DNA of 64,000 nucleotides from an uncultured Candidatus Saccharibacteria bacterium. GTDB taxonomy: Bacteria > Patescibacteriota > Minisyncoccia > Phycocordibacterales > DSPV01. The notes beneath the pieces were generated by a model that was not told the origin of the DNA, ran no database searches, and worked only from the letters and a program-made list of their open reading frames with translations. The stretch's first letter is position 1, and each line of letters starts with the position of its first letter. A program made the position numbers and the translations under genes. The DNA is taken from contig CAZNMD010000001.1 in assembly GCA_964574355.1 (NCBI GenBank), positions 26,180-90,179 on the forward strand. The letters run 5' to 3'. This document shows, piece by piece, positions 23,920 through 54,818 of this stretch.

Positions 23920-23924
23920 CGTAA

Positions 23925-23965
23925 TTAAAAAATCTCCGCGTATAAGACGCGGAGATTTTGATTTT
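23925..23965. terminator. Bidirectional Rho-independent terminator (TCTCCGCG-tataaga-CGCGGAGA + TTTTGATTTT)
   Basis: Perfect 8-bp stem flanked by an A-run and a T-run. Serves the convergent aspS and the 23977-24516 ORF. Confidence 0.85.
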
Positions 23966-23976
23966 ACTTCTCGACT

Positions 23977-24516: not shown

Positions 24517-24724
24517 AGATCAAACCTTTCTATTCTATTTTTTTGAGTTTAGCCCCAAAACAGACAGCATTGCTATCTGTTTATATCCTATAATAAATTA
24601 CTCTTAATATTACACTTTGTCAACTATTACAGCCTTCTGTTTCCCAAAAAAGAACTGCCCGAAGCCCCATCTTCAGTGGATATACACCCTAACAATTGGC
24701 CACAAAATAGGGTAAAATGCGAGA

Positions 24725-27033: not shown

Positions 27034-28119
27034 ATGAACTTTATCATTACCGATTTTGTAAAACTACTTTTACCAGCAACACTATCTTTCGTCGTTGGTA
27101 TCGGGCTAGCAGTTATTCTTTCCCACTATCTATACAAATACAAATTATGGAAACCAAAAGCAGGGAAAATTGATCTTTCTGGCAACGAAACACCTATATT
27201 CAACGCCCTTCACAAAGACAAAGAAATAAACACTCCGCGAATGGGAGGCATTATTGTATGGCTGTCACCTCTCGTCACTGTTATGCTTTTGTGGATTGTT
27301 GCATTTGTATATCCTGCAGCATCATTTGTTAAACTTGATCTTCTTTCACGAAATCAAACATGGCTACCTCTTTTTGCATTGGTTATTGGAGGGCTCATTG
27401 GAATAATCGATGACTGGTTTGAAATAAAAGGTTTTGGCGGCAGAAAAGCGGGAGGGTTGTCTCTAAAGAAACGACTCTTTCTTGTTTCTCTTATTGGACT
27501 CGTCGGCGGTTTTTGGTTTTACGAGAAGTTAGATGTTATTACAATTGGTTTTTCTTATTTTGGCAGCAGTGAAATTCCACTTGGAATACTTTTTATTCCT
27601 TTCTTCGTTATTGTTACTGTAGCTGTGTATTCGGGGGGTATTATTGACGGAATTGATGGTCTTGCCGGAGGAGTTTTTGCAACTGTATTTACTTCATATG
27701 CCGTTATTGCTTTTGTGCAACAACAAATAAATCTTGCAGCCTTCTGTTTAACCGTCGTCGGAGCAATACTTGCTTTTCTCTGGTTTAATATTCCACCAGC
27801 CAGATTTTATATGTCTGAAACAGGAAGCATGGCCTTAACAGTAACTCTTGCCATCGTTGCATTCATGACAGATAGCCTTGGCGAGGGAAGAGGTGTTATC
27901 GTTCTTCCCATTATCGCTCTTCCTCTTTTTCTAACAACTCTTTCAGTTATTATTCAAACACTCTCTAAAAAAATCCGTGGCAAAAAGGTGTTCCTGGCAG
28001 CACCAATACATCACCACTTTGAAGCTATTGGCTGGCCCGCCTACAAAGTTACTATGCGTTATTGGATTTTTGGGGCCCTCTCAGCATTTATTGGTATAGC
28101 GCTCGCGTTGATTAATTAA
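27034..28119 (+). CDS. mraY: Phospho-N-acetylmuramoyl-pentapeptide transferase
   Basis: GIIDDWFEIKG and IDGIDGLAGG motifs, about 10 TM segments, and position upstream of ftsW-murG. Confidence 0.92.
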   Translation: MNFIITDFVKLLLPATLSFVVGIGLAVILSHYLYKYKLWKPKAGKIDLSGNETPIFNALHKDKEINTPRMGGIIVWLSPLVTVMLLWIVAFVYPAASFVKLDLLSRNQTWLPLFALVIGGLIGIIDDWFEIKGFGGRKAGGLSLKKRLFLVSLIGLVGGFWFYEKLDVITIGFSYFGSSEIPLGILFIPFFVIVTVAVYSGGIIDGIDGLAGGVFATVFTSYAVIAFVQQQINLAAFCLTVVGAILAFLWFNIPPARFYMSETGSMALTVTLAIVAFMTDSLGEGRGVIVLPIIALPLFLTTLSVIIQTLSKKIRGKKVFLAAPIHHHFEAIGWPAYKVTMRYWIFGALSAFIGIALALIN

Positions 28120-28134
28120 TCAACAAAAAAAACA

Positions 28135-29262
28135 ATGGCCGTGCAACAAAAAGCTGTCGATAAAATCCTTCTTGGAATAATTGGAATATTCATTGTTGTC
28201 GGTTCTGCCTTTTTCATATCAGCTTCTCTTGGATTATTAGCAAGAGAAGCAGGACCGAGCGTTTCACACCTTGCTGTTAAGCAGCTTGTTATTGGTCTTT
28301 GCTTGGGTAGCCTTATTTTGTATATCTTTTCTCGCGTCCCCGTGCTTTTTTGGCGCCGTAATGGTTTCTTTTTGTATATTGCAGGACTTCTAGCCTGCCT
28401 TTTAGTATTTATTCCAGGCCTTGGATTTGAATTTGGCGGAGCACGACGTTGGATTATACTTTTTGGAATCTCTATTCAACCAGCCGAACTACTCAAATTA
28501 GGGGCTGTTGCATACTATGCAGCACTTCTTACTGCGGTTGGAAAAGGAGTACGTGATTTTAGAACCGGCGTCCTTCCAATTTTTTTTGTATTACTTCCCA
28601 TCATTGGCGTGCTCTTTTTACATCCAGACCTAAGTACCCTCGCTGTCACCGTCGCGGCTTTGTTTGGAATGTATATAGCCGGAGGAGGAAAATTTTATCA
28701 CGCAACACTTATTGTTCTTTTTGTTGGACTTATTGGTATTGGAACAATACTCGTCAAACCATACGCCATGGAACGAGTCCAAACATTTCTACACCCAGAA
28801 GCTGACACGGCAGGATCAGGATATCAGATCAATCAATCTCTCACCGCGATTGGTGCCGGTAACTTTTTTGGAAGAGGATTTGGCCAAGGAATTCAAAAAT
28901 TTCGCTATCTACCAGAACCTGTTGGAGATTCCATTTTTGCTGTTATAGGCGAAGAATTTGGGTTTATTGGAACAGGAGGGCTCATTCTTCTTTACCTCGT
29001 TTTTACAGGGCGAGCCCTCACTATTGCCGCAAAAAGTCGCGATCGCTATGGTGGACTCCTCGTTGTTGGAATTGTTATACTAATAATTACTCAATCATTT
29101 TTTAACATGGCATCAATGCTTGGGCTTGTTCCTCTTTCTGGTATGCCACTTGTCTTTGTAAGCCAAGGAGGAACGGCGCTCGTAACGGCTTTAGCGAGCG
29201 TTGGTATAATATTGTCAGTCTCAAGAATAAAACCTCTATCCACTACTCAAACATCTCTATGA
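28135..29262 (+). CDS. ftsW: SEDS-family peptidoglycan glycosyltransferase FtsW
   Basis: Polytopic SEDS protein. Context mraY-ftsW-murG. Confidence 0.88.
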   Translation: MAVQQKAVDKILLGIIGIFIVVGSAFFISASLGLLAREAGPSVSHLAVKQLVIGLCLGSLILYIFSRVPVLFWRRNGFFLYIAGLLACLLVFIPGLGFEFGGARRWIILFGISIQPAELLKLGAVAYYAALLTAVGKGVRDFRTGVLPIFFVLLPIIGVLFLHPDLSTLAVTVAALFGMYIAGGGKFYHATLIVLFVGLIGIGTILVKPYAMERVQTFLHPEADTAGSGYQINQSLTAIGAGNFFGRGFGQGIQKFRYLPEPVGDSIFAVIGEEFGFIGTGGLILLYLVFTGRALTIAAKSRDRYGGLLVVGIVILIITQSFFNMASMLGLVPLSGMPLVFVSQGGTALVTALASVGIILSVSRIKPLSTTQTSL

Positions 29263-30383
29263 AAATTGTCATGACAGGAGGGGGAAGTGGCGGCCACTTA
29301 TATCCCATTCTCGCTATCGCAGACGCAATCGAAGAAATCGTAAAAAAAGAACACCTTGTTGAGCCAAAAGTTTGGTTTGTATCTTCTGAAAGTTACGACA
29401 AAGGACTTCTGTATCAGCATGGATTACGCGGAAAAGTAATTCAAACAGGGAAGCGCAGACTGTATCGTTCGTCCAAAAACTTTTTTGATATTTTCAAAAC
29501 GGGCCATGCTATTATTCGAGCCCTTTTTTTCCTTTTTAGAACTTACCCCGACGTCGTTTTTGGAAAAGGTGGATATGCAAGTTTTCCCTCCCTTTTTGCG
29601 GCTCGCCTCCTTAGAATTCCGGTCGTTGTTCATGAATCAGACACAGTACCAGGACGAGTAAACTTGTGGGCAGGCAAATTTGCTAAACGAATTGCAGTTT
29701 CTTACCCCGAAGCAGCAAAATATTTTCCGGAAGATAGGGTGGCCTGGACAGGGAATCCTATTCGAAAAAGCATCATTACTCCGATAAAAGATGGCGCGGC
29801 TGCATTTTTAAATCTTGAATCAGATATACCCACCGTCTTTATTGTGGGAGGTTCACTTGGTTCACAAAAAATTAACGAGGTTATTTTAGACACACTTGTT
29901 TCCATTCTTCCACAGTGCCAAATTATTCACCAAACGGGCAAAGAAAACTTTGCAGAAATTACCCGCTTAGCCGAAGTTGTTTTAGAAAACAACGAACACA
30001 AAAGTCGTTACCATCCTTTTGCTTATCTCGATGATCAAGCCCTGCAACTTATAGCTGGAAACGCAACGCTGGCCATAACTCGGGCCGGTTCAACTCTTTT
30101 TGAAATAGCCACCTGGGGAATTCCCTCTGTTGTTATTCCTATTACTGAATCAAACGGTAATCATCAGAAAAAAAATGCTTTTGCTTATGCACGAACAGGG
30201 GCTGCTGTTGTCATAGAAGAAGCAAACCTTGCACCCCATGTTCTCTCAAGTGAAATACTACGCCTCCTCAAAGATGAAGTTTTGCGACATAAAATGCGTG
30301 ATGCTGCGAAATCGTTTGCCCGTCTCGATGCCGCAGAGCTTATCGCACGAGAACTTATTGACGTTTGTCTTAAACATGAATAA
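29259..30383 (+). CDS. murG: Undecaprenyl-PP-MurNAc-pentapeptide-UDP-GlcNAc GlcNAc transferase MurG
   Basis: N-terminal TGGGSGGHLYPILAIAD and GT28 architecture. 4-nt overlap with ftsW. Confidence 0.93.
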   Translation: MKIVMTGGGSGGHLYPILAIADAIEEIVKKEHLVEPKVWFVSSESYDKGLLYQHGLRGKVIQTGKRRLYRSSKNFFDIFKTGHAIIRALFFLFRTYPDVVFGKGGYASFPSLFAARLLRIPVVVHESDTVPGRVNLWAGKFAKRIAVSYPEAAKYFPEDRVAWTGNPIRKSIITPIKDGAAAFLNLESDIPTVFIVGGSLGSQKINEVILDTLVSILPQCQIIHQTGKENFAEITRLAEVVLENNEHKSRYHPFAYLDDQALQLIAGNATLAITRAGSTLFEIATWGIPSVVIPITESNGNHQKKNAFAYARTGAAVVIEEANLAPHVLSSEILRLLKDEVLRHKMRDAAKSFARLDAAELIARELIDVCLKHE

Positions 30384-40710: not shown

Positions 40711-41178
40711 ATGAATACACCTGCCTCGTTCATTGTAAGGAAAGGCCTAAAAAACCCTTCGTATAGAACGCTTTTTCCGTCGCCTTTGTTACGTTTTTAT
40801 ACCAGTGGAGAGAAAAAATTCAGAAGGATTTCACTCGATATAGAGATCGTCGCGCAGGCTCGACGTGAATTACGACGTTTTGCCAAACGGCTCTCCATTT
40901 CTGATCTTTGTTCTTTGTGTCGGGCACTCAAAAAAGGAGAGCTAACTGAATGCGTTCGGGATGATAGCTTTGTTGGAACAATAATCAAGTACCGAAAGCG
41001 CCGCCAGCGAACCGACAGGTTGAATCCAGATGATTACAATCACCTAGAAGAAAGTAGGGCTCTTGTTTACTGGTTTAAACAACACGTGGGGAGACTTCCT
41101 CCGGATAGTGATGACTATGTCGCAACCACTATCTGCTGGCTGGAGCAAATCATCAAAGAACGACGCTCTGGAAACTGA
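40711..41178 (+). CDS. Hypothetical basic (Arg-rich) protein
   Basis: 155 aa with its own -10 TATACT and GAAAG RBS. A terminator follows. No domain recognised. Confidence 0.45.
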   Translation: MNTPASFIVRKGLKNPSYRTLFPSPLLRFYTSGEKKFRRISLDIEIVAQARRELRRFAKRLSISDLCSLCRALKKGELTECVRDDSFVGTIIKYRKRRQRTDRLNPDDYNHLEESRALVYWFKQHVGRLPPDSDDYVATTICWLEQIIKERRSGN

Positions 41179-44174: not shown

Positions 44175-45269
44175 TTATTCTTCAAGATCTGGCTTATCTA
44201 ATACCTCTACCTCAATACCCGGTGCCGCACCTGCAATACGAAGCACATCCTTATCAAGCTGACGAAAAGCTTTACCCGATGCGTTGTAATGATTCACCAC
44301 TGTCCCGAGCGCATTTCCAAGCTTGGCGTGATACTCCTCATAACCTTTTAAATGCTTTCCTAGCTCCTCAACACGCTTTCGAATCTCTTTAGCCGTTTCC
44401 TCAATTTGAAGCGCCTTAAGGCCCTGTAAAACGGTCTGGAGGTAGGCCAGGAATGAGGTCGGAGAAACAATTATGACGTGATACTTTCCGGCCGCACGCT
44501 GGACCAGGTTTTCCGTGTCATCGGTGACTGCACCAACCTTATTGATCAATAAATCGTAATAAATTGCCTCATGGGGAATAAACATGAATGCAAATTCGGT
44601 TGTCCCCTGCTCTGGTTGAATATATTTTGATGTTTCAACTATTCGATTCTTCAAATCGTTCGTAAATACTTTCTGAAGCCGGTCTTTTTCACTCGGATCC
44701 CTCGCCTCAACAATACGATTATAATTTTCAAGAGAAAACTTTGAATCAACCGGAATAACTTTGTCTTTTACAAAAACCGCAGCATCAACAATCGTGCCGT
44801 CTGGAAACGCGTACTGCATTTGATATGAATCCGGTGGCAACACATTTTTCAAAAGCGTTTCAAGGTAATACTCGCCAAGAACGCCACGTTGTTTTGGATT
44901 TTTTAAAAGATCGCCAAGATTTTGCAATTCTGATGCGAAACCAACCATTTGTTTTCCGGTCTCCTCAACGCGCGTGACCTTTTCAGTCATGGACGTCACT
45001 TCTTTAAGAAAGCGGTCGACAAGCTTTTGCGATTCACCAAATTGTGAACGCATAGCTTCGCTCATAAACTTATTTGTCTCCCCAATTTTACTATCTACTG
45101 TCCGAGACAATGAATTCATCTGATCCAACAAAAGCCGCAATGAGGAGTCATCTTGTTGAACAGGTTTCTGTTTTCTTACTAATAAGAAAATAACAGCCAC
45201 AAGAAGTGCTGCAATAACTGCCAAAAATCCAATCAGTGCTGGGTCCATAAGTAGCATTCTAACATCCAC
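44175..45269 (-). CDS. rmuC: DNA recombination protein RmuC
   Basis: N-terminal TM, long coiled-coil, and C-terminal RmuC nuclease-like region (FAFMFIPHEAIYYDL…). Confidence 0.85.
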   Translation of the reverse strand: MDVRMLLMDPALIGFLAVIAALLVAVIFLLVRKQKPVQQDDSSLRLLLDQMNSLSRTVDSKIGETNKFMSEAMRSQFGESQKLVDRFLKEVTSMTEKVTRVEETGKQMVGFASELQNLGDLLKNPKQRGVLGEYYLETLLKNVLPPDSYQMQYAFPDGTIVDAAVFVKDKVIPVDSKFSLENYNRIVEARDPSEKDRLQKVFTNDLKNRIVETSKYIQPEQGTTEFAFMFIPHEAIYYDLLINKVGAVTDDTENLVQRAAGKYHVIIVSPTSFLAYLQTVLQGLKALQIEETAKEIRKRVEELGKHLKGYEEYHAKLGNALGTVVNHYNASGKAFRQLDKDVLRIAGAAPGIEVEVLDKPDLEE

Positions 45270-45344
45270 GCTTGTATATCAAAACCTAAAATAAAAACCT
45301 CGTGGTAGTGCTACCACGAGGTTTATGTAAAACGACCCACTCCT

Positions 45345-45932
45345 TTACTCCAAACGGACACTCACCGTACGTTTTGTGAGCATCGAAGGACGAACGAGGA
45401 GAATCGTTACGACAATGCTTTCGATCACAAAAAAGGTGATCGGCTGAGCAGCATCTGCAAAGGTCCACCGCGGAATGGCGATGACGGCACAGAAACACGA
45501 CAACCAAAAAAGAGTCCACGCCAACTTGTTTTCCCGAGCTGGATCTTCCCACGCAGATTGAAAAGTTGGAAGCGCACCGATAAACAGAGCAACTTGTGCA
45601 ACTCCGATTCCAAAATTTGCCTCCTTGAAAACCACCCAAAGAACAATGGCAAACGCAGCGCCAACAAGACACAGCTTATCGAGCTTCGTCCAGCCAGGTG
45701 TTCCGTGCATGATCGCGAGTACAACAACAATCCATACTCCGATAACGGCTCCAATAATCTGGCCATTGACCGTACCTTTTGCATACATACCAGCAAACGT
45801 AACAGTATCCAGAACTCCCCAGATAACCCACGAAGCCTTGGCAGGCTTCGTTGTCTTTTGAAGAATGGCAAGAATGTATGGAACGAAAGCAACAAGAACC
45901 AACAAGCCCGCAATGAATGACAGCGTTTTCAC
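45345..45932 (-). CDS. Hypothetical polytopic membrane protein (GC-elevated)
   Basis: 5–6 TM helices, a GTG start with an AAGGAAGAG RBS, no domain recognised. Two alternative-frame ORFs overlap it, a sign of high GC. Confidence 0.55.
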   Translation of the reverse strand: MKTLSFIAGLLVLVAFVPYILAILQKTTKPAKASWVIWGVLDTVTFAGMYAKGTVNGQIIGAVIGVWIVVVLAIMHGTPGWTKLDKLCLVGAAFAIVLWVVFKEANFGIGVAQVALFIGALPTFQSAWEDPARENKLAWTLFWLSCFCAVIAIPRWTFADAAQPITFFVIESIVVTILLVRPSMLTKRTVSVRLE

Positions 45933-46089
45933 TCTCTTCCTTTTTTTGTTTTTTTACGAAGAACGTATGATAAAATAATAACAGTTTAATTTAATACTGT
46001 CAATAAATGTCTTCCTGCACAAACATCTTCAACTAGATTTTTATACCTGAAAGCGGTAAGCTCTACCTATCAACTAAACACTACTATCA

Positions 46090-46536
46090 ATGTCACTTCA
46101 AACCGATATAAAAGCAGGAATCAAAGAGGCGATGATGAAAAAAGACGAAGTACGATTGACCGTGCTTCGCTCTATTCAGGCTACAATCACCAACGAAATA
46201 ATCGCGAAAAAAGCAACGGAACTTCTCGATGAAGACGTTCTCACCATCATCCGCCGATCGGTAAAACAACACAAAGACTCAATTGATCAATTTACGAAGG
46301 GTAACCGCATGGATTTGGTTCAGAATGAACAAGCTGAACTAACCGTTCTTGAAGAATTTCTTCCAACAATGATGAGCCGAGAAGAAATCAAAAAAATTGC
46401 TGAAAAGAAAAAAGCAGAACTTGGTATCACAGACAAATCAAAAGCCGGAATGTTGACGGGCGCTCTCATGAAAGACTTGAAAGGTCGTGCAGATGGTAGT
46501 GATGTAAAATCAATTGTTGAAGAACTTTTAGGGTAA
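46090..46536 (+). CDS. GatB/YqeY-domain protein
   Basis: LQTDIKAGIKEAMMKKDEVRLTVLRSIQA… matches the YqeY family. Confidence 0.85.
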   Translation: MSLQTDIKAGIKEAMMKKDEVRLTVLRSIQATITNEIIAKKATELLDEDVLTIIRRSVKQHKDSIDQFTKGNRMDLVQNEQAELTVLEEFLPTMMSREEIKKIAEKKKAELGITDKSKAGMLTGALMKDLKGRADGSDVKSIVEELLG

Positions 46537-46632
46537 AAACCTAAGGACGCCTGCCCCGTAGTGAAGCGAATCCCTGAGCTTCTACTACTGGAGTTAAAAG
46601 CTGTTGTCGAGAAACCGCTCGGATAAGAATAC

Positions 46633-46662
46633 AAAAACCCGCTACGGTAGTAGCGGGTTTTT
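46633..46662. terminator. Bidirectional terminator (CCCGCTAC-ggta-GTAGCGGG flanked by A5/T5)
   Basis: AAAAACCCGCTACGGTAGTAGCGGGTTTTT. Confidence 0.8.
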
Positions 46663-46905
46663 AAAGTCTCAAACGATGGACCTGTCACTATCGCCTTTTC
46701 GGCATTGTCGCCCTCACCGAGGGCTGACGATCATCCGGCTCGAGCATCATGTAACGCTCACGTCGTGCCTCAGGATACCGAGGGACATGCCGATAACGGT
46801 GCTCCTTACCAGAGTGCCTGTTGCCAAGCCCCGCCGATGCTAACCTTGCATTGTTGCTCATAGTAATTAACCGATCCGTATAGAATACTCACAAAAATGA
46901 AGTTT
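46663..46905 (-). ncRNA. Candidate ~250-nt minus-strand transcription unit (GC-rich; encodes at most a 57-aa Arg-rich peptide) – sRNA or small protein
   Basis: It sits between a minus-strand TTGACA-N17-GAGTAT promoter (around 46880-46913) and the 46633-46662 terminator. It starts ATGAGCA like its divergent partner. No ribosomal-protein or known-RNA match was confirmed. Confidence 0.3.
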
Positions 46906-46906
46906 T

Positions 46907-46949
46907 TTGTCAATCCACAAACTTGACAATAGAGATTTCTCTACTATAA
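46907..46949. promoter_or_regulatory. Back-to-back divergent promoters on inverted repeat TTGTCAA-N8-TTGACAA; plus-strand consensus TTGACA-N16-TATAAT
   Basis: Plus -35 at 46922-46927 and -10 at 46944-46949. The minus -35 is the reverse complement of 46908-46913. Confidence 0.6.
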
Positions 46950-46962
46950 TTTAAACCAGATT

Positions 46963-47169
46963 ATGAGCACCCTAAGACGTCGGAAAATCCCGTCGAGGTG
47001 GTGGTTTAGTCGAATGAGACAGGCGGCAGCAGGAACACTTTCTGCTCCAACTCCAAAAACAACTTTGGGAGTTCCCTACTCTCAAATCGAACTCGCAGCA
47101 AAACTGACAGCCAACCCTGATGATGACGTACAACACCGCACCGAAGTATTACGCGGCGAATGGGATTAA
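46963..47169 (+). ncRNA. Candidate ~250-nt plus-strand transcription unit (68-aa Arg-rich ORF with unbiased codons, or sRNA)
   Basis: A consensus promoter lies 13 nt upstream of the ATG, there is no SD, and a terminator follows at 47186-47214. Arg is encoded by six different codons, which argues against a conserved CDS. Confidence 0.3.
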
Positions 47170-47185
47170 ATCCCCCCACAACACA

Positions 47186-47214
47186 AAACAGAGTCGCAAG
47201 ACTCTGTTTTATTT
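47186..47214. terminator. Rho-independent terminator (AACAGAGTC-gcaa-GACTCTGTT + TTTATTTT)
   Basis: Perfect 9-bp stem with a GNRA-like loop. Confidence 0.8.
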
Positions 47215-47217
47215 TAC

Positions 47218-47430
47218 TTACTCATTTGAATTTATAAGTGCATCAATTGCGGCAAGACGCGCAGTTTGATTTTCAATTTCATCCCTTTTTTCAGCAGCTA
47301 ACAACTCACCAAGTGCCTGCACGTCAGACGGAGGAAGCACATCAAGCCGTGCAATAAGGTCACCTTTAAGCTCGTGACTAAAAAGTCCACTCCATCGTAT
47401 TAAAACTGAAAGCGCTTCTTTTTTAGTCAT
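47218..47430 (-). CDS. Hypothetical small protein, translationally coupled to 47423-47977
   Basis: 8-nt ATGACTAA start/stop overlap with the upstream gene. 70 aa, helical, no domain recognised. Confidence 0.5.
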   Translation of the reverse strand: MTKKEALSVLIRWSGLFSHELKGDLIARLDVLPPSDVQALGELLAAEKRDEIENQTARLAAIDALINSNE

Positions 47431-47977
47431 TATTTTTTACTTGGTTTGCTTCAGGTAAAAATACTGAAACGGCTTCATCTATTTCCTCTTGATGGGCCTT
47501 ATATGTTTCATCATCTAATTTCATTGTCTCCCGCAAAGATACAAAGGCATCGTGTATAGCTTGCTTATCACCTTTAAAAAATTGATAGAGCGTTTCGTAC
47601 AAATGAGACGGCATAGCGCCTCCAACAACTTCGGTTGCTTCTGTTGCAAGTGCTCCAGCAAGAGGAACATCTGGTGTTAAAAAATTCAACCGTCTAAACC
47701 AGCGCAACTTTGCCAACGACTTAAACGCATCAGCACTCCAAGAACCAGTCTCTCCAGCGACCGGAACAATATCAAGAAGACTGATCCCCGTATTTGCCAT
47801 CGTACGCAACAAAGCCTTTCCCCCTTTTTGAATTGAAGGATTTCGCAAAAGCATTTCCCACTTTGAATACGTCACCGCATACTCTCCAACAAGTTTCGGA
47901 GGAATTTCTTGCGGACGTTCTAGAGAAGCCTCCCATTCATTTTCATTCGCTATTTCATTTTTTGGTATAGATTCCAT
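47423..47977 (-). CDS. Hypothetical protein (first gene of a two-gene operon)
   Basis: 184 aa, no domain recognised. GC-elevated. Confidence 0.55.
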   Translation of the reverse strand: MESIPKNEIANENEWEASLERPQEIPPKLVGEYAVTYSKWEMLLRNPSIQKGGKALLRTMANTGISLLDIVPVAGETGSWSADAFKSLAKLRWFRRLNFLTPDVPLAGALATEATEVVGGAMPSHLYETLYQFFKGDKQAIHDAFVSLRETMKLDDETYKAHQEEIDEAVSVFLPEANQVKNND

Positions 47978-48229
47978 GAGTTATATCTCTATATTACGTT
48001 GATTCAATCTCGGTGAAAAGCATCGTATTACATCAACTGCCCAAAGGGGTAAAGAGTGGAGAAAATATTCGTCTGTTACCTTGGTTTGTTAATAAAAAAA
48101 TACAACAACAGATACGAGCTCAAAATTGACATATATACTATTTTATGCTAATTTAATAGTAGACTGCACCTCTCCATGAAAAGTCACGTAGGGCCGGAAA
48201 CCTTACATGATGAGCCGGAAGCTCCCTGG

Positions 48230-48241
48230 CATGTGCACATG
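48230..48241. promoter_or_regulatory. Perfect 12-bp palindrome CATGTGCACATG 16 nt upstream of ATG 48258
   Basis: Seen directly. It is preceded by the direct repeat GCCGGAAAC / GCCGGAAGC and a TTGACA at 48124. Confidence 0.35.
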
Positions 48242-48257
48242 AAAGGTACCTCACAAC

Positions 48258-48875
48258 ATGACGACGAAGCAAACAGAGTTTGAAATAGTGAAATATTTTC
48301 TCAAACACAACAGCTACGGGCAGGCACGGATTCGAGCCGTTCACGCCAACGTTGTTGCGCGTCGACAGTTCGGACAGAGCCTACTGATCACATTGTTGGG
48401 CATCTTCGTAGCATTGGTGGGAACACTCATCAACAACGCTCCCCAGATTCCCCACAATGTAAGAATCGGAGAAGTGCTCTTCGCACTTGGCGGAGGTTTA
48501 ACTATCCTCTTTATAATCCGTGGCGTAATCAAGCTCTACAATGTGCGCAGCGGCTGTGATTACGAAAACGGTGCTTGGGAAGATGGCCTCCAAGATATTC
48601 TCGAAACCATCAAAACCTTCGAGAAACTTTTCGGAAAACGTCCGGAAAAACTTGGCCTTCAGGGAACAGCCCGTTTCCTTACCCATGAAGCAGGAACGAT
48701 CCTCCGCCTGAACGCGCAACGACGAAGTCCGGAAGAACTTATTTTGCGCAAACGCTTCAGGGACATGCACGATGTGGCAAGCAAGCTCATGCCAATGTCG
48801 AGCTACGAGGAAATCTACCACGCTGCCCAAAACAAGCAGCAACGACCAACCTTCATTCCTGGTTTTACCAGCTGA
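48258..48875 (+). CDS. Hypothetical two-TM membrane protein (GC-elevated)
   Basis: 205 aa with two hydrophobic helices. No domain recognised. Confidence 0.5.
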   Translation: MTTKQTEFEIVKYFLKHNSYGQARIRAVHANVVARRQFGQSLLITLLGIFVALVGTLINNAPQIPHNVRIGEVLFALGGGLTILFIIRGVIKLYNVRSGCDYENGAWEDGLQDILETIKTFEKLFGKRPEKLGLQGTARFLTHEAGTILRLNAQRRSPEELILRKRFRDMHDVASKLMPMSSYEEIYHAAQNKQQRPTFIPGFTS

Positions 48876-49247
48876 CGTGGTCTTGATGCCTCATTGTTCT
48901 TTAGAACGACACAGCAACCCTACCCTAAACCGGTGGGGTTGTTTTTTTGTTTACGTGAACCTACGGGGACCGCTCCGCGTATCGATCCTTACAGGATCAG
49001 TACAGGTTTCCCATTTTTTCACCATCAGAATGGCTCAAAAATATGGGAGAACCTTTTCGATTCCTACAGGGAAACGCGGAGTACCGCTTTCGGTCAGGAA
49101 TATTTTATTCGCCGTCGCTCATAAAATTTCCCGACCCGGACTCGCGCTTCGCCCAAGCTTGGGCTCAAGGCACTCCGTCTTTCGATTCCCCGTAGCGTCT
49201 ACAAAAATATAGTCGGCCAATGCTTCGCGCTGGCCTCATTATTTTTG

Positions 49248-49319
49248 TGACCCTACGGGGAATCGAACCCCGATTTAAGCCTTGAGAAGGCTCTGTCCTA
49301 ACCGTTAGACGATAGGGCC
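49248..49319 (-). tRNA. tRNA-Glu (anticodon CUC), CCA not encoded
   Basis: Cloverleaf read by hand: acceptor GGCCCTA/TAGGGTC, D-arm GTCT/GGAC, anticodon stem GAGCC/GGCTT with loop TTCTCAA (anticodon CTC), T-arm CGGGG-TTCGATT-CCCCG, discriminator A. Confidence 0.88.
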
Positions 49320-49371
49320 ATATCTGAATAAAAAAATAATAGCTTAAAATAATGCCTTTATCAAGATGGAA

Positions 49372-49400
49372 TTGACATTTGCCAATATATTTGTTATTAT
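49372..49400 (+). promoter_or_regulatory. Promoter TTGACA-N17-TGtTATTAT upstream of 49468
   Basis: -35 at 49372-49377 and -10 at 49395-49400. An AAGGAG RBS lies 8 nt before the ATG. Confidence 0.5.
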
Positions 49401-49467
49401 TTTAAATAGAGGTTGATATCACTTCAACCGCCCTAAACAGTCACCACACAGGTGACAAGGAGTATAG

Positions 49468-49890
49468 ATGAAATTGAAATTGATGATGCCGGCAATCTAC
49501 AAATTGACTAGGTGGTCGGCAAACGAGGCAAATGTTCAGGTACCAAAGGCAAGGATATGGGGATGGCACAGAGTTGACGACCTCATTGAAGTCGTCAACA
49601 ACATCCGAGAAGAAAAGGGGCTTTCCCCTTTAACCCCGCAGCAAATGGGGGAAACATACCTTCTCAAGGATCTGCCGATCGACCAGGAAGCGATTCCTGA
49701 GGCTCGCAGCTGGTGCCACCCGTTGTGTTTCGCAATGGAGGATCCCTCGGATGGGACATTCTATCCAACCCTCATGAACTGTCATCCAACATTTTGGCTC
49801 CACCATCTGAAAGAAGACTACAAATGGTGTAAGGACAAATTTGTCCCAGCCGGAGTCGGCATGGCCCTCATCAAAATGGTGAAAGCTTAA
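49468..49890 (+). CDS. Hypothetical Cys/His/Trp-rich protein
   Basis: 140 aa with good promoter, RBS and terminator. No domain recognised. Confidence 0.55.
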   Translation: MKLKLMMPAIYKLTRWSANEANVQVPKARIWGWHRVDDLIEVVNNIREEKGLSPLTPQQMGETYLLKDLPIDQEAIPEARSWCHPLCFAMEDPSDGTFYPTLMNCHPTFWLHHLKEDYKWCKDKFVPAGVGMALIKMVKA

Positions 49891-49904
49891 GGCTAGCACC
49901 GCAC

Positions 49905-49945
49905 CCCGCTCTCGATTCAATCGAGAGCGGGTTTTCTTTTTTATT
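49905..49945. terminator. Bidirectional terminator (CCCGCTCTCGA-ttcaa-TCGAGAGCGGG + T-run)
   Basis: 11-bp perfect stem followed by TTTTCTTTTTTATT. Confidence 0.85.
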
Positions 49946-49973
49946 ATACTCTCTCACTTCCCCTTTTTTATTC

Positions 49974-51272
49974 TTACCTTCTCCCCCACTCTTCTTCTTG
50001 TCTCACTAAAACATCTTTTGCTATTTTTGGATCAGCTAACAGGGCAGCTGAAACGCGTTCCATTCGAGCACCTTGAGAACCTTTTACTAAAACAACATCA
50101 CCTTTTGCAACAATCTTTGAAAGATATTCTGCTGCCTCTGCTGAATTTGAAAAAAAGACAACGCTTTCTTTTGCTTTTCCAGATTTAAGTAAAGCTTCCC
50201 CTGCTCCACGTGCTCGTAAACCAACAGCGACAAATAAATCTACAAATGTCGCTTCTTTGCCAATTGCTTCATGCTCAGCAATTGAATATTTTCCAAGTTC
50301 GAGCATGTCACCAAATGCAACAATTTTTCGCCCCTGTACCGTAAGGCTCGACAAGGTATGCAACGCTTCTCGAGCGGCCACCGGAGATGAATTGTAACTA
50401 TCATCAATGATCACTGACCCCTCTTTACCTTCCAATAGCTTCATTCTTCCCGGAGGAGACACGTGAGTAGCCAGACGATCAGCGGCTTTACGAATATCAA
50501 AGCCGGCAGCTTTTGAAGCGGTAAGTGCGGCTAAAAGTGGATAGGCATGATGTTTACCAAGCGACCCTTTATAGGTCATAAAAAAAGATTCCCCTCCTGA
50601 TAAAATCTTCATTGAAAAACCAACTGGATAGCGCCGCCCATCTTTTTCTTCATAAACCACCTCATACGTTTCTGCACGAACAGTTACCCCCTCAGAAAAT
50701 CCATACGTGAGCATAGAAACACCTCGCTTCTTCACTCCATCAATAATCAATGGATCATCTCCGTTCGCGATAACGGTTCCGCCTTTTTGAAGTGAGTCAA
50801 CCAAGGAAAGTTTTTCTTCCACAACCTTTTGTGGCGAAGAAAAATATTCAACATGTACGGGAACATTTGGAAGACGCGTCAAAACAACCATATGCGGTTT
50901 AACCCAGGAGGCTATTTTTTTAATATCACCTGGCCGGTCAGCCCCAACCTCAAGCACAACCCACTTTGGATAGGTCGTAAAACCAAAAATAACCTTAAGA
51001 CCTTGAAAAATATTTACCGTCCAGGCAATAGGATCGCTCCAAGCGTTTTTAAGACCAAGAATAGTAAGAGGCACACCAATCTCACTATTAAAAGATTTTT
51101 CACTTTTTCGCGCCTGCACAAAACCAGAAAACGCAGTAAAAACTGCGTCTTTTGTTGAGGTCTTTCCAACACTACCGGTAACTGCAATAACTGATGGCTT
51201 AAACCTTTTTAAAACCGCCCGTGATTCTGCTTCCAAAATCGTGGCGATTACTTTCTTAAAAACAGCCTTCAT
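49974..51272 (-). CDS. murF: UDP-N-acetylmuramoyl-tripeptide--D-alanyl-D-alanine ligase
   Basis: Mur ligase P-loop AVTGSVGKTSTKD and MurF-type domain order. Confidence 0.9.
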   Translation of the reverse strand: MKAVFKKVIATILEAESRAVLKRFKPSVIAVTGSVGKTSTKDAVFTAFSGFVQARKSEKSFNSEIGVPLTILGLKNAWSDPIAWTVNIFQGLKVIFGFTTYPKWVVLEVGADRPGDIKKIASWVKPHMVVLTRLPNVPVHVEYFSSPQKVVEEKLSLVDSLQKGGTVIANGDDPLIIDGVKKRGVSMLTYGFSEGVTVRAETYEVVYEEKDGRRYPVGFSMKILSGGESFFMTYKGSLGKHHAYPLLAALTASKAAGFDIRKAADRLATHVSPPGRMKLLEGKEGSVIIDDSYNSSPVAAREALHTLSSLTVQGRKIVAFGDMLELGKYSIAEHEAIGKEATFVDLFVAVGLRARGAGEALLKSGKAKESVVFFSNSAEAAEYLSKIVAKGDVVLVKGSQGARMERVSAALLADPKIAKDVLVRQEEEWGRR

Positions 51273-51348
51273 AGATATGGAATAAATATATCAGATGAAT
51301 GGCTATTTTCATTGTGCATTTTGATTCGAATCTCTACCTCATCATACA

Positions 51349-51377
51349 TTGACTAAGCTACATTATTATGTTAATAT
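51349..51377 (+). promoter_or_regulatory. Promoter TTGACT-N17-TAATAT upstream of 51441
   Basis: The hairpin TGCAAC-aggtaaa-GTTGCA (51408-51426) lies between the promoter and an AAAGGA RBS. Confidence 0.45.
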
Positions 51378-51440
51378 TCTACTTAGAGCACTCATACGTG
51401 CACCCTTATGCAACAGGTAAAGTTGCATCAATAAAGGACA

Positions 51441-52130
51441 TTGATAATGAATACATTGGGTCTTCCCCAATTGATGGATAAGTCGTACTTCGACAGCGTC
51501 AGCCAGCTGATGAGGAAACAAGGTCTTCGTGAGTTCGCTCGCGTCGCTATCAGCACAGATGATGTGCGGTATCACGTTTTAGCATCAATTGCTCGGAGCA
51601 CCTCACTCTTCTTCTTACTCTCGCAACGCGCCTTCATGGTACAACTCACTTACACCGAGAGTAACCACGAAGACGAGCAGGAAAGACTGTACTATACCGG
51701 AAAACCTCCACAGGGGGTGCACGGGCATTGGAGCATACACTTCTACCATAAGTTCCTGGAGTACGGTAAACTTCTGGATCGAGTAAAACACCTAGATCAC
51801 GAATGTTGGGACGATGAATTGGCAAAAGTGCCTTTTCACGGACACGGTCCGAAATTCTCTGGGTTTCAGTGGTACGGAAACAAATACGAAGAACCTGGTC
51901 AAAATCCACAAGGTCTCGACCTTGGGAGATTAGCACAAGAAATAGGCTACAATACCTACCTCTGTGCCGACTGGCTCGCGGGCCCACAATTCGACGACCT
52001 TCAAGTCACATGCTTCCCTCCGTACTACACGTTCCCCGGATGTGAAAACATCTTCTGGGATCGGTTCGGAAGGCACAACCTTCGGCCACTCATCAAAAAG
52101 GCTTGGGGTTCGGAAGGACTCAGGAGATAA
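51441..52130 (+). CDS. Hypothetical protein (GC-elevated, His/Trp/Tyr-rich)
   Basis: 229 aa with no recognisable domain. Its own promoter and terminator. Confidence 0.55.
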   Translation: MIMNTLGLPQLMDKSYFDSVSQLMRKQGLREFARVAISTDDVRYHVLASIARSTSLFFLLSQRAFMVQLTYTESNHEDEQERLYYTGKPPQGVHGHWSIHFYHKFLEYGKLLDRVKHLDHECWDDELAKVPFHGHGPKFSGFQWYGNKYEEPGQNPQGLDLGRLAQEIGYNTYLCADWLAGPQFDDLQVTCFPPYYTFPGCENIFWDRFGRHNLRPLIKKAWGSEGLRR

Positions 52131-52153
52131 CTGACTCTTTTCATTTCAGTTCA

Positions 52154-52183
52154 AAGCCGCAGAGCAATCTGCGGCTTTTTTAT
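52154..52183 (+). terminator. Rho-independent terminator (AAGCCGCAGA-gcaa-TCTGCGGCTT + T6)
   Basis: Perfect 10-bp stem. Confidence 0.85.
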
Positions 52184-52251
52184 TGACAAATATACTTATA
52201 TATGATAAATTTTCTAGCAGGTAAAGTTCCTCGAAATTAGATTTCTGCACT

Positions 52252-52300
52252 TCGTCATAGCAGAGAGCAGCTAACTACTTAGCATTTCTCTGCTATGACG
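52252..52300 (+). promoter_or_regulatory. 14-bp perfect inverted repeat CGTCATAGCAGAGA…TCTCTGCTATGACG enclosing the ATG of the 52295 ORF
   Basis: The arms lie at 52252-52265 and 52287-52300. The 21-nt loop contains the mini-hairpin GCTAA-ctac-TTAGC, and the start codon lies inside the 3' arm. Confidence 0.5.
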
Positions 52301-52882
52301 AAATCAAACGGTTTCTCTGGCAAACGTTTACTCAAACGTTTCAAAACAGAGTACGTATGGCGACAACGTCACCGCCTAGTACATATGCAACCAATCATTC
52401 AGTTTTACTGGCAACTCCTCGAGCACTGCAGGAATGACATTGGAGGAAGTATACTCACACAAGGAATTCTTTCTTTGGCAAAAAAAGCAAAACCCTCGTG
52501 GATAGCGACCGAGGAAAATGTCCGCCTTGTGAGGGAGTGGTACCTTGATAGCAACGAGCTCAACTCGGGAACCAACGCAAAAGAAAAACGTCTCACCGCC
52601 CACAAGCTGATGCTGGACTTGTTGGCGGCGGCCTTCAAAGACCTCTCTCCTCTCAAAAATCCTGCGGCAATGGCACTCTTTTTTGAGATCAAGCAAGCGT
52701 TTTGTCTGCCCGAAGATGTCTTTGTATGGGCACGGAATATCAAGCAGCGCGAAGATGGTAGTGGAGTCATCATTCTCCACGTAAGTGATGTTGATACATT
52801 CAGACGCACTATGGAGGCCGGGCGGATGGGTGTCAGAGGTCGAACCCTCGAAAAGGTTCTGCTCATCGATGGATCAGAGTAA
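52295..52882 (+). CDS. Hypothetical protein (GC-elevated)
   Basis: 195 aa with no domain recognised. Two antisense ORFs of >130 aa overlap it, which reflects high GC. Confidence 0.5.
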   Translation: MTKSNGFSGKRLLKRFKTEYVWRQRHRLVHMQPIIQFYWQLLEHCRNDIGGSILTQGILSLAKKAKPSWIATEENVRLVREWYLDSNELNSGTNAKEKRLTAHKLMLDLLAAAFKDLSPLKNPAAMALFFEIKQAFCLPEDVFVWARNIKQREDGSGVIILHVSDVDTFRRTMEAGRMGVRGRTLEKVLLIDGSE

Positions 52883-52905
52883 TCAATTCCAAAATAAAAA
52901 GTTAC

Positions 52906-52938
52906 AACCCCAAGCTACGCGCTTGGGGTTCTTTTTTA
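52906..52938. terminator. Terminator (AACCCCAAGC-tacgc-GCTTGGGGTT + CTTTTTTAT)
   Basis: Perfect 10-bp stem. Confidence 0.85.
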
Positions 52939-53090
52939 TATTCCGAATATTGTGTCGTCATTCCGATGGCGCACCTTAGGGTAATTTGGTGCGAGGCTTT
53001 TGTACTAGAGAATGTAACGGAGGCCGATGAGGCCGAGTGTAGGGCGGCGCGAGCACGCGACGACCCGCATTCTCTGGTGCAAAGGCCGAG

Positions 53091-54818
53091 TTAACGGTCT
53101 GGAGGAATATTGTAATACGACAACAAAAATCTCGCTGTATCCATTGTTGGTATCGTCAACGTTTCAGATGCATACGTGGCACCTTTAGGATACACAGCAT
53201 ACATAAACACTAAAAATTTAGGATCGTACGCAGGAAAATAAGCGAAAAATGAGTGAAGGTATCGATCATCATAATATCCTCCCGAACTGTTAGCCATTTG
53301 AGCCGTTCCCGTTTTTGCAGCAACCGTATATTTAGCCAGTTTTGCTTTACCGTGCAAAAGAGCGTCATCAACCACCTTAACCAACATGCGAGTAATCGTC
53401 TTTGATGTGTTTTCTGAAATCACACGTCGCTCAGACGTATAATCTGGCCGACGCACCGAACCATCTTCATATCGAATTTCTTGAATTAAATGAGGATTTG
53501 GAAGTATGCCACCATTTCCAAGAGCCGAAAGCGCTCGAGCCATCATAATAGGGGTTACGGCGAAACCTTGACCATATGACGCAGTTGCAACCGTCACATC
53601 ACGCTTATTAGAAAGGTTGGCCACAAGTCCCGCAGATTCATTTGGTAAATCAATTCCTGTTTCTTCACCAATACCAAAACGATGTAAGCCCTCTATAAAT
53701 TTGTCATAGCCTAATTTCAAACCAACATAAGCTGCGCCCGTATTCAACGATTGGCTTAAAATTTCTTGCATTGGCACGGTCCCCCTTCCTTTACCATCAA
53801 AATTTTTAATAGTCTTTCCGTCCAAATCAAGAAATCCGGCATCAAAGTAGGTTGACTCTGCATTTACAATACCAGCATCAAGACCAAGCGCTACCGTAAT
53901 TGGTTTTGCAATCGAACCCATTTCATACACATTTTCAACAATTGGATTTCCAAACACAGATGGATCCGTAACTTCACCATAAAGATTTGGATCAAATGAC
54001 GGAAGTGAAGCCATGGCCAACAGTGCACCTGTTTTTGGATCCATAACAAGAGCCCCTACCTCATCAGCTTTCCAATTCTCATTAAATGACTCTAATGTTT
54101 TTTCTATTTCGAGTTGAACTGACGGCTCGATTGAAACAATAATATTTCCTGGACCCTCAAGTGTGACCTCTTCTTCTTTTGGCTTATCTTCAAATAAGGT
54201 AGCGAAAAGTGACGAATGAACTCCTGTATTACTGCGACCTAACACATGTTCATAGTACCGCTCGAGTCCATAACGTCCGGTTAACATATCACCCTCCCAA
54301 CCAACAAATCCCAAAAGATGCGACGCAAAATCACCGGCCGCATAGATACGCCAATGTTCATCACTAACAATGGTCCCTTCAAGTGCCCTCTCTTCAATCA
54401 ATCGTGCAGCATCGCGTGGAACACGTTTGGCGACTTCTTCATATGTATCATTTGTTTTTGCTGCTTTTTGCAAAAAAATGGCCTGATCAAGAGGTACGAT
54501 CGCAGCAAGAGACTGAAATGTTGTCTCGGGGTTTTTTATAACACTCGGATTAATTGCCAACGTGGCTCCCGATGCAATCGTCGCCGCACCAACTTCAATA
54601 CCTTTTTTATCTAAAAAATAAATAGATCCGCGATCGAACAGATTTCCAGAATTTCTTCGATATTGTCGGTCAGCAGCTTCACGATATTCATCACCATGAA
54701 CAATCGTGACCATATATAGTTTCACTAAAAGAATGAGGCCTGCGACAAGAATCAAAAAACCAATGAGACGAAGCCTGAGCGAAAAATCATGACCAAGAGC
54801 ATCGCGGCTATGACTCAT
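53091..54818 (-). CDS. ftsI: Peptidoglycan D,D-transpeptidase FtsI (class B PBP)
   Basis: N-terminal TM, a dimerisation domain, transpeptidase SxxK (SIAK) and KTG motifs. Context: mraZ-rsmH-ftsL-ftsI. Confidence 0.88.
   Translation of the reverse strand: MSHSRDALGHDFSLRLRLIGFLILVAGLILLVKLYMVTIVHGDEYREAADRQYRRNSGNLFDRGSIYFLDKKGIEVGAATIASGATLAINPSVIKNPETTFQSLAAIVPLDQAIFLQKAAKTNDTYEEVAKRVPRDAARLIEERALEGTIVSDEHWRIYAAGDFASHLLGFVGWEGDMLTGRYGLERYYEHVLGRSNTGVHSSLFATLFEDKPKEEEVTLEGPGNIIVSIEPSVQLEIEKTLESFNENWKADEVGALVMDPKTGALLAMASLPSFDPNLYGEVTDPSVFGNPIVENVYEMGSIAKPITVALGLDAGIVNAESTYFDAGFLDLDGKTIKNFDGKGRGTVPMQEILSQSLNTGAAYVGLKLGYDKFIEGLHRFGIGEETGIDLPNESAGLVANLSNKRDVTVATASYGQGFAVTPIMMARALSALGNGGILPNPHLIQEIRYEDGSVRRPDYTSERRVISENTSKTITRMLVKVVDDALLHGKAKLAKYTVAAKTGTAQMANSSGGYYDDRYLHSFFAYFPAYDPKFLVFMYAVYPKGATYASETLTIPTMDTARFLLSYYNIPPDR

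Follow-up and report, generated by a model that had tools for sequence, protein, structure and literature searches.

Accessory genes of mixed age between rmuC and ftsI in a patescibacterial genome: a probable long-lived plasticity zone beside murF and tRNA-Glu

The locus and its genomic setting

The DNA analysed here, a stretch of 64,000 nt of contig CAZNMD010000001.1 (hereafter the window), carries between rmuC and ftsI a 7.8-kb interval (45286-53090) in which nine accessory open reading frames (ORFs) are interleaved with murF, a tRNA-Glu gene and yqeY (Table 1). A first-pass annotation had taken these ORFs for one body of horizontally acquired material, possibly a degraded integrative element or a defence/addiction island, that splits the division and cell wall (dcw) cluster. 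The evidence discussed below suggests that the interval is probably a long-lived plasticity zone holding accessory genes of mixed age, and not one recent mobile or defence element.

The overall GC content of the window is 41%, and its gene set (DnaK/DnaJ/GrpE, many aminoacyl-tRNA synthetases, MreBC, two penicillin-binding proteins, mraY-ftsW-murG and mraZ-rsmH-ftsL-ftsI-murF), together with the relatives found through MurF, places the host in the Patescibacteria. For MurF, the best matches reach 49% identity and come from metagenome-assembled genomes labelled Giovannonibacteria, Taylorbacteria, Parcubacteria and similar; scans of GTDB and JGI with MurF gave none above 49% identity, and closer relatives were reached only via the accessory proteins. 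The related loci fetched for comparison are numbered L001-L058. In one of them, L049, the backbone from mraZ through rmuC to L9 consists of the same genes (RmuC 89%, DnaB 84% identical), and yqeY, an ordinary housekeeping gene within the interval, is 92% identical in L056 and 78% in L049.

The accessory genes had been described as orphans without a recognisable domain, and no credible match was indeed found for the nine ORFs in Pfam, NCBIfam, PHROGs or PADLOC (the 57-aa ORF not being part of the PADLOC scan), nor any paralogy among the ORFs of the interval. However, when the concatenated ORFs were compared exhaustively with 1.84 billion representatives by HMMER, 2,315 matches were obtained, identical proteins among them. 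The best 150 were inspected and revealed homologues of 45345 (a large family), 47423, 48258 and 51441, so that orphan status does not hold for most of these genes. A word-index search in which several proteins were joined into one query missed entries with 100% identity; such negatives are unreliable and were discarded. The view that the accessory genes run opposite to the dcw genes also had to be narrowed, since it applies to only 4/9 ORFs, with 45345, 47218/47423 and one of the tiny ORFs sharing the dcw strand.

Table 1. Features of the interval and its borders (positions in the window)
Feature	Coordinates	Strand	Remarks
rmuC	44175-45269	-	
ORF 45345 (195 aa)	45345-45932	-	Modelled as a 7-helix PQ-loop/SWEET-like membrane protein
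yqeY (GatB/YqeY domain)	46090-46536	+	Pfam PF09424, E = 5.6e-38; native backbone gene
Tiny transcription unit	46632-46915	-	57-aa Arg-rich ORF 46688-46861
Tiny transcription unit	46923-47210	+	68-aa ORF 46963-47169
Two-gene operon, 47423 (184 aa) then 47218 (70 aa)	47218-47977	-	
ORF 48258 (205 aa)	48258-48875	+	
GC-rich non-coding DNA downstream of tRNA-Glu	48944-49246		
tRNA-Glu, anticodon CUC	49247-49319	-	ARAGORN and Rfam, 61.8 bits
Gene 49468, monocistronic unit	49372-49931	+	ORF 49468-49890 (140 aa)
murF	49974-51272	-	Pfam Mur_ligase_M, Mur_ligase_C; TIGR01143, E = 3e-66
Gene 51441, monocistronic unit	51349-52178	+	ORF 51441-52130
Gene 52295, monocistronic unit	52183-52930	+	ORF 52295-52882 (195 aa)
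GC-rich structured segment just 3' of ftsI	52945-53090	-	
ftsI	53091-54818	-	Last of the mraZ-rsmH-ftsL-ftsI block, which reaches 56563

Composition and codon usage

That the interval is rich in GC was borne out by a sliding-window analysis, its value of 0.448 (0.404 in the remainder of the window) corresponding to the 99.8th percentile of windows of the same size, essentially the maximum. At third codon positions, GC content (GC3) is 0.308 +/- 0.036 in 52 housekeeping genes, while five accessory genes, 45345 (0.47), 48258 (0.54), 49468 (0.59), 51441 (0.55) and 52295 (0.52), deviate by z = 4.7-7.9. The elevation is thus real for these five but does not extend to 47218 (0.25) and 47423 (0.31), which are native-like. 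Codon usage led to the same partition. In a model trained on native genes, which score 0.26 +/- 0.09 bits/codon, the five GC3-rich ORFs score between -0.20 and +0.02, i.e. 2.5-5 standard deviations lower, with the annotated frame scoring best among the six, whereas 47423 and 47218 (0.25 and 0.28) score as native genes do. The shift consists mostly in a preference for NNC over NNT codons (TAC 0.82 vs 0.35, TTC 0.58 vs 0.16, CAC 0.79 vs 0.42), and G-ending codons, the rare AGG, CGG, CTG and TCG among them, rise to a lesser extent. The C/T shift is partly attributable to the strand (native genes are at ~0.4 on the plus strand and ~0.15 on the minus strand), and third-position G+C is raised on both strands. 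Across the window, C/(C+T) in two-fold NNY codons is ~0.38-0.42 in plus-strand housekeeping genes and ~0.12-0.26 in minus-strand ones, a strand-dependent codon choice that agrees with a steep negative GC skew from ~33 kb onward.

The long antisense ORFs that had been noted are present as a by-product of GC3-rich codon usage, but they are not conserved in homologues. Antisense dual coding was ruled out since the open antisense stretches are not conserved between homologues. Long ORFs on both strands could also mean that some of the ORFs are not genes at all, having arisen by chance in GC-rich non-coding or RNA-coding DNA, which would be in keeping with the failure of the profile libraries and with the fact that two non-coding segments (48944-49246 and 52945-53090) are themselves GC-rich and structured. 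Nevertheless, 7/9 ORFs are conserved as ORFs in relatives with a ratio of nonsynonymous to synonymous divergence (dN/dS) below 1, the annotated frame outscores the other five, the promoter-terminator units are filled by ORFs of 140-229 codons and there are no Rfam matches, all of which makes this explanation very improbable for the interval at large. It is possible only for 49468, 52295 and, outside the interval, an ORF at 15315-15752.

The last of these is one of three unannotated GC3-high ORFs found elsewhere in the window, at 15315-15752 (minus strand), 23977-24516 (minus strand) and 40711-41178 (plus strand), with z = 6.5, 5.2 and 3.0, so that the pattern is genome-wide and not peculiar to the dcw region. 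The three stand singly between housekeeping genes, and the coding frame of the first is ambiguous. The ORF at 40711 separates cysS from dnaB, two genes that are direct neighbours in L049. Rfam gave nothing for 15315 and 23977 in an E-value search of 15100-24800, 40711 being covered by the gathering-threshold scan of the window only.

Transcription signals

As had been proposed, each ORF is bracketed by its own promoter-like site and a strong terminator. Terminator-like sites are enriched in the interval (19 vs 10.1 +/- 2.6 expected) and promoter-like sites in total are not (19 vs 15.3 +/- 5.1 expected), the best promoter matches (12/12 and 11/12) lying directly upstream of the genes. Gene 45345 has a promoter at 46003-45975 and a terminator at 45324-45295. 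The unit of the 57-aa ORF, in which GC reaches 0.61, has a promoter-like TTGACA...TATTCT read from the sequence and a terminator at 46663-46632, and that of the 68-aa ORF has a perfect 12/12 promoter (46923-46950) and a terminator at 47185-47210, its transcript being almost leaderless. A terminator follows 48258 at 48913-48943, while 49468 possesses an 11/12 promoter with an extended -10 element, an AAGGAG ribosome-binding site and a terminator at 49905-49931. The promoter of 52295 lies at 52183-52211 and the gene ends in a bidirectional terminator (52906-52930). Because this terminator lies after ftsI, and because murF has a promoter-like site of its own at 51312-51285, the insertions may uncouple murF transcription from that of mraZ-ftsI.

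In the leader of 52295, a hairpin (52251-52302) with an interrupted 22-bp stem (17+5; -35.4 kcal/mol, z = -5.75) buries the annotated ATG, and one public gene call begins the protein at Met31. The hairpin could be a device of translational control or could reflect a mis-assigned start.

The gap between ftsI and murF

The dcw cluster is split, as had been stated: ftsI and murF are 1,818 bp apart in the window, against no more than ~240 nt in 33/34 related loci from GTDB and JGI metagenomes. The split is due to 51441 and 52295, but the other genes of the interval, which had been assigned to the same gap, lie elsewhere. Compared with Parcubacteria at large, the genes that separate ftsI from murF and murF from tRNA-Glu are insertions.

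An idea of the age of 51441 came from L047 (MurF 81% and FtsI 88% identical to those of the window) and L040 (MurF 68%, FtsI 83%), whose FtsI genes are annotated Transpeptidase and PBP_dimer. Both have a 51441 homologue, 73% and 68% identical respectively and with a high GC3, at the identical site between murF and ftsI and in the same orientation, which indicates, from gene order and alignment, a clade-ancestral insertion of a conserved family. The likely start of 51441 is the ATG at 51447. The family has 54 invariant alignment columns and a C-terminal motif LQVTxFPPxYTFPG...WGSxGL[KR]R, and homologues with 42% identity are found at a different location in other Parcubacteria, beside a 45345-like gene. 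In L041-L045 (e.g. L043 6369-8269), a GC3-elevated trio, made up of a 7-helix gene like 45345, a member of the 51441 family and a gene for a 126-aa protein, is found between scpA and the L27 gene. The adjacency of the first two suggests a functional link between their families.

No 52295 homologue is present at the ftsI-murF site of L047 and L040, and an identical copy of the gene was found in L048, an independent sample. Between 52295 and ftsI, the minus-strand segment 52945-53090 (GC 0.6; folding energy -49.7 kcal/mol, z = -3.9) aligns with the 3' flank of ftsI in L040 (3326-3648) over 323 columns with a mean column identity of 71%, with apparent compensatory changes in stems and a second partial copy of one sub-motif in L040. 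The segment is absent from L047, a closer relative than L040, and has no Rfam match.

Genes conserved in place in relatives

Other accessory genes are likewise found in place in relatives. In L056 (RmuC 95%, YqeY 92%), the gene order is rmuC, a gene for a 192-aa membrane protein, yqeY, a 60-aa ORF, a 69-aa ORF, 47218, 47423, a 348-aa gene and 48258. The first two small ORFs correspond in position to the tiny ORFs of the window, the 57-aa one being 50% identical over 36 aa (E = 1e-6) to its counterpart and the 68-aa one 60%. The 47423/47218 pair, which overlaps by 8 nt (47423-47430), is found in the same order, and with the overlapping junction kept, in L056 (68% and 83% identical, respectively) and L049 (57% and 46%); L046, which repeats the arrangement of 47423, 348-aa gene and 48258, has part of a 47423 homologue (75% identity over 106 aa) at a contig end. 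The 348-aa gene, which has a weak CsoSCA_cat match and lies between the 47423 and 48258 homologues (L046 350-1396, L056 3280-4326), is missing in the window, where only 280 nt (47978-48257) separate the two genes.

The 48258 protein has two predicted transmembrane helices (hydropathy windows above 1.6 start at residues 37-75) and a soluble C-terminal domain. Its syntenic homologues are 60% (L046), 46% (L056) and 30% (L049) identical, with a GC3 of 0.54, 0.51 and 0.63, respectively. In L049, where ftsI and murF are adjacent, the 48258-like gene lies between murF and tRNA-Glu.

The 47423/47218 pair had been called toxin-antitoxin-like. It is a small overlapping bicistronic operon, as this implies, but no homology to toxins or antitoxins was found, and its native codon usage and conservation in place are not what a mobile addiction module would show. 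Searches of Pfam, NCBIfam, PADLOC and PDB sequences gave only spurious matches for the two proteins, with E above 0.01.

Synteny in relatives had been put forward as a means of recognising a recent island, and the answer is divided in that 49468 and 52295 are absent at the corresponding sites in the closest relatives but most genes are conserved in place. For the latter, the outcome is the one that had been specified beforehand as refuting a recent island, since related genomes carry 51441 (L047, L040), 48258, 47423/47218 and both tiny ORFs (L046, L056, L049) where the window does. The comparison of loci indicates that 51441, 48258, the 47423/47218 operon and the two tiny ORFs form a clade-ancestral layer.

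The tRNA-Glu site and its defence islands

In L003, L009, L020 and L036, tRNA-Glu lies 17-60 nt downstream of murF, whereas in the window 49468 intervenes. This gene has no homologue in L001-L058 by tblastn, and its only match among the best 150 of 2,315 is itself. Repeated copies of the 3' end of the tRNA, reported previously, were confirmed: an inverted copy of 21 nt with 3 mismatches (49181-49201; 0 expected by chance) 45 nt from the tRNA, and a degenerate direct copy (48955-48969; 14/15 nt) 292 nt from it. The two bracket only ~280 nt of non-coding DNA, and cleaner repeats are seen in L001 and L020, where 16-18 nt of the tRNA 3' end recur exactly and in direct orientation at a distance of 150-200 nt, and in L056, where a 21/22-nt repeat starts 168 nt before the tRNA copy (~146 nt between). 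L034 has an extra copy of 26 nt. The tRNA-proximal segments of the window, L001 and L020 have nothing convincing in common beyond the tRNA repeats. Within the window segment, 48944-49090 (minus strand) has a long predicted fold (-49.4 kcal/mol, z = -4.05) containing a stem-loop like a tRNA anticodon arm (GATCC-TGTAA-GGATC); it matches no Rfam family, and the corresponding segments of relatives showed no homology to it.

Several relatives harbour low-GC islands here. L056 has, between the 48258 homologue and the tRNA 3' repeat, a Thoeris island (5398-8184; ThsB, ThsA_Macro, ThsB) with DUF2188 and S24 peptidase genes. In L049 the tRNA is followed by a restriction-modification island (5956-9330) encoding a helix-turn-helix protein, a C5-methylase, a 481-aa protein and an N4/N6-methylase. 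L002 has an island (11987-14137) with a LexA-fused C5-methylase and a Bsp6I-like endonuclease, and a GC-rich prephenate dehydratase gene in the same interval. These findings show that the surroundings of tRNA-Glu are a genuine hot spot of integration, of which the window retains only a ~300-nt scar with att-like repeats of the tRNA 3' end.

Could the whole interval nevertheless be a single horizontally acquired, degraded integrative element, or a defence/addiction island, that entered at tRNA-Glu and spread across the dcw genes with 47423/47218 as its toxin-antitoxin? The partial tRNA 3'-end copies, the atypical composition, the Thoeris and restriction-modification islands of relatives at the same tRNA and the 8-nt overlap of 47423 and 47218 would all be consistent with this scenario. 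However, native murF, tRNA-Glu and yqeY are interleaved with the accessory genes, most of which are conserved in place in relatives with saturated synonymous divergence, and the operon has native codon usage and a stable synteny in three relatives (partial in L046). Moreover, no integrase or recombinase was found among the ORFs of 45286-53090 in Pfam, NCBIfam or PHROGs; PADLOC gave 0 matches to defence genes for 8/9 ORFs (the 57-aa ORF at 46688-46861 lying outside the scan); a phage tblastn with four ORFs and a scan of viral contigs with the 51441 family found nothing; and Rfam, searched at the gathering threshold over the whole window and by E-value in 45000-53200 and 15100-24800, returned tRNA only. 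A single element of this kind is therefore quite improbable, and the interval, without an integrase or defence homology in the window, is better described as a mosaic of ages.

Gene 45345

Structure prediction, which had been recommended together with remote-homology searches, put a name to the fold of 45345 but found none for 51441, for which the AlphaFold2 (AF2) model has a predicted local distance difference test (pLDDT) of 57 and no fold match. In contrast, the AF2 model of 45345 (pLDDT 96.9; predicted template modelling (TM) score 0.90) has seven helices in a 3+1+3 arrangement, and its top Foldseek matches are cystinosin (8dyp), the KDEL receptor (6i6b) and SWEET (5ctg), with probability 1.0 and TM scores of ~0.66. 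The model thus identifies 45345 as a PQ-loop/SWEET-like 7-helix membrane protein. The family is large, making up well over 100 of the best 150 of 2,315 matches, and has conserved motifs P30/W35/W38 and P122-T123...P131/E134, but no Pfam match (PF04193 and PF03083 included) was found for 45345 or any of 86 aligned homologues.

The best homologue, in L052, is 53% identical and adjoins tRNA-Glu and murF, in a genome whose MurF, FtsI, RsmH and MraZ are only 36-42% identical to those of the window (the first three 36-37%). In L056 and L049, the site between rmuC and yqeY is occupied by a remote paralogue (17-20% identity; hhalign probability 98.4%) in the opposite orientation. Because the identity to L052 exceeds that of housekeeping proteins and the site is differently occupied in L056 and L049, 45345 is likely to represent a horizontal replacement of the resident remote paralogue, the differences in identity and site occupancy being observed and the replacement inferred. 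Horizontal acquisition, originally proposed for all the genes, is hence retained for some: 45345 has transfer signals and 49468 and 52295 are absent from the relatives' sites, but most of the other genes are ancestral.

Evolutionary rates and the GC3 offset

Protein evolution in the clade-ancestral layer is faster than in the housekeeping neighbours, by a factor of roughly 1.4-10. For 48258, nonsynonymous divergence (dN) from L056 is 0.51, compared with 0.04-0.07 for native genes. For 51441, dN from L047 is 0.20 and synonymous divergence (dS) 0.78, while five dcw-cluster genes have a dN of 0.05-0.14 and a dS of 0.95-1.8, and greA, outside the cluster, a dS of 0.73; the dS of 51441 is lower than that of dcw-cluster genes in two other pairwise comparisons too. 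The clade-specific genes have a dN/dS of 0.25-0.3.

The compositional offset persists in relatives. In 7/7 related contexts examined, the GC3 of these families is above that of host neighbours by ~0.1-0.35: 0.47 vs 0.25-0.34 in L047, 0.56 vs 0.36-0.47 in L040, 0.42-0.45 vs 0.22-0.36 in L043, 0.54 vs 0.29 in L046, 0.63-0.68 vs ~0.36-0.53 in L049, 0.46-0.51 vs 0.27-0.35 in L056 and 0.72 vs 0.31-0.51 (most neighbours ~0.37) in L052.

A long-lived plasticity zone

The scenario that we consider probable is one in which a truncated dcw block (mraZ-rsmH-ftsL-ftsI-murF-tRNA-Glu) ends in a plasticity zone, anchored by tRNA-Glu and by the edges of operons that are short and conserved. Cassettes of a single gene, each equipped with transcription signals, would persist, be replaced or be added between ftsI, murF, tRNA-Glu, yqeY and rmuC, while islands carrying defence genes would come and go at tRNA-Glu through attachment (att) sites. 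The elevated GC3 would stem from gene exchange, including allele replacement, with a GC-richer pool that we infer to be shared among Parcubacteria, possibly reinforced by a degree of constraint on synonymous sites. Presence or absence between relatives varies for 49468, 52295, 45345 and the relatives' Thoeris and restriction-modification islands; above the clade-ancestral layer, 49468 and 52295 would constitute a strain-specific one, as their absence from the relatives' sites partly demonstrates and partly implies.

Several points weigh against this scenario. Neither 49468 nor 52295 has a homologue in any fetched locus, in a search that is weak, covering the best 150 of 2,315 matches, and the contigs of the closest relatives are short. 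The families are GC3-richer than every host examined, which is unexpected under random exchange between lineages. A confident fold is available for 45345 alone and the functions of the products are putative. Finally, when synonymous changes were polarised with L040 as outgroup (numbers being small and saturation a concern), 2/42 GC-ending sites of 51441 had changed to A/T on the window lineage, compared with 57/126 in flanking genes (Fisher p = 5e-7), and therefore the composition of 51441 is not simply that of a foreign gene in decay.

The rest of the polarised data make a contrasted picture. The flanking genes are at compositional equilibrium, with an implied GC3 of 0.30. On the L047 lineage, 51441 is losing GC, with 15/55 GC sites changed to A/T and 1/29 A/T sites to GC. 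On the window lineage, its AT-to-GC changes (5/32 sites vs 74/385 in flanking genes) are not elevated. The pattern fits a recent import of an allele from a GC-richer relative, or a constraint on synonymous sites.

If such a constraint were the whole explanation, the genes would be vertically inherited and lineage-specific, their high GC3 being held by synonymous-site selection, e.g. for high expression or mRNA stability. The consensus-like promoters, the strong terminators, the AAGGAG site of 49468 and the marked NNC-over-NNT preference would then make sense, as would the recurrence of the offset in every host genome examined and, in 51441, the suppression of GC-to-AT changes and a dS below that of most neighbours. 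However, the rise in rare G-ending codons is contrary to translational selection, the C-over-T shift is partly a strand effect, and genes known to be highly expressed (dnaK and those for L27, L9 and L21) have an ordinary GC3 of 0.31-0.39. The loss of GC from 51441 on the L047 lineage and the clear transfer signals for 45345 are no easier to accommodate, and selection on its own appears unlikely. GC-biased gene conversion at a recombination hot spot could raise GC3 locally as well, recombination being reportedly linked to GC3, and the locus is indeed variable, GC3-rich and bordered by conserved flanks that are possible homology arms. Nevertheless, the flanking ftsI, murF, rmuC and yqeY have an ordinary GC3 (0.30-0.39) and 51441 lacks the excess of AT-to-GC changes, which leaves gene conversion a very low probability.

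A bolder proposal, which is somewhat unlikely as the evidence stands, is that the 51441, 48258 and 45345-type families form a distinct class of monocistronic, strongly signalled Parcubacteria-specific genes in which synonymous GC is actively held well above that of the host, either by selection on mRNA or because the families circulate as a mobile pool of GC-rich genes. The scarcity of GC-to-AT synonymous changes in 51441 would be the first sign of it.

As for function, the predicted products comprise a 7-helix protein resembling transporters, a membrane protein with two helices, a soluble protein of a conserved family (51441, with the invariant WGSxGL[KR]R) and small soluble or basic proteins and peptides, which may serve lineage-specific roles in the envelope, uptake or interaction with a host rather than in defence.

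Should the plasticity zone be real, it would be an ordinary case of tiny symbiont-type genomes keeping a few flexible sites beside conserved operons. Three uncharacterised protein families have been defined in the process, of which that of 45345 is a confidently modelled PQ-loop-like transporter family for which there is no Pfam model, and the murF/tRNA-Glu junction stands out as a place where defence systems have landed repeatedly in Parcubacteria. Unless it is maintained by selection, the GC3 offset would be of limited interest; if it is, it would bear on how GC-ending codons are favoured under AT-biased mutation.

Comparison with known systems

Genomic islands and plasticity zones can be anchored at tRNA genes, and defence islands can occur there. 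The locus resembles such islands in that the window and its relatives vary in gene content beside the tRNA, in the repeats of the tRNA 3' end (degenerate in the window, cleaner in relatives) and in its atypical composition, and the relatives resemble defence islands in holding Thoeris and restriction-modification systems at the same site. It differs from them in that profile searches of the window reveal neither an integrase nor a recognised defence gene, in that its atypical genes are GC-richer and not AT-richer than the host, and in that these genes are interleaved with the backbone, several being conserved in place across species-level divergence. Similarly, 47423 and 47218 are like type II toxin-antitoxin modules in being co-oriented, with a small second gene and overlapping stop and start codons, but 47423 has 184 aa without a fold assignment and a native codon usage, and the synteny kept in L056 and L049 is unlike the patchy distribution of mobile modules.

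The protein encoded by 45345 shares with the PQ-loop, SWEET, cystinosin and KDEL-receptor proteins an internal repeat and a conserved proline in helices 1 and 5. However, the PQ dipeptide of this superfamily is replaced by P-x-x-x...Q and PTFQ, and known bacterial relatives such as SemiSWEETs are 3-helix proteins, unlike 45345 with its seven. Finally, compared with the canonical dcw cluster (mraZ-rsmH-ftsL-ftsI-murE-murF-mraY-...-ftsZ), that of the window was already fragmented, mraY-ftsW-murG lying ~20 kb away at 27034-30383. Nevertheless, mraZ-rsmH-ftsL-ftsI-murF are kept in canonical order, with ftsI and murF set further apart in this clade by one or two genes on the opposite strand.

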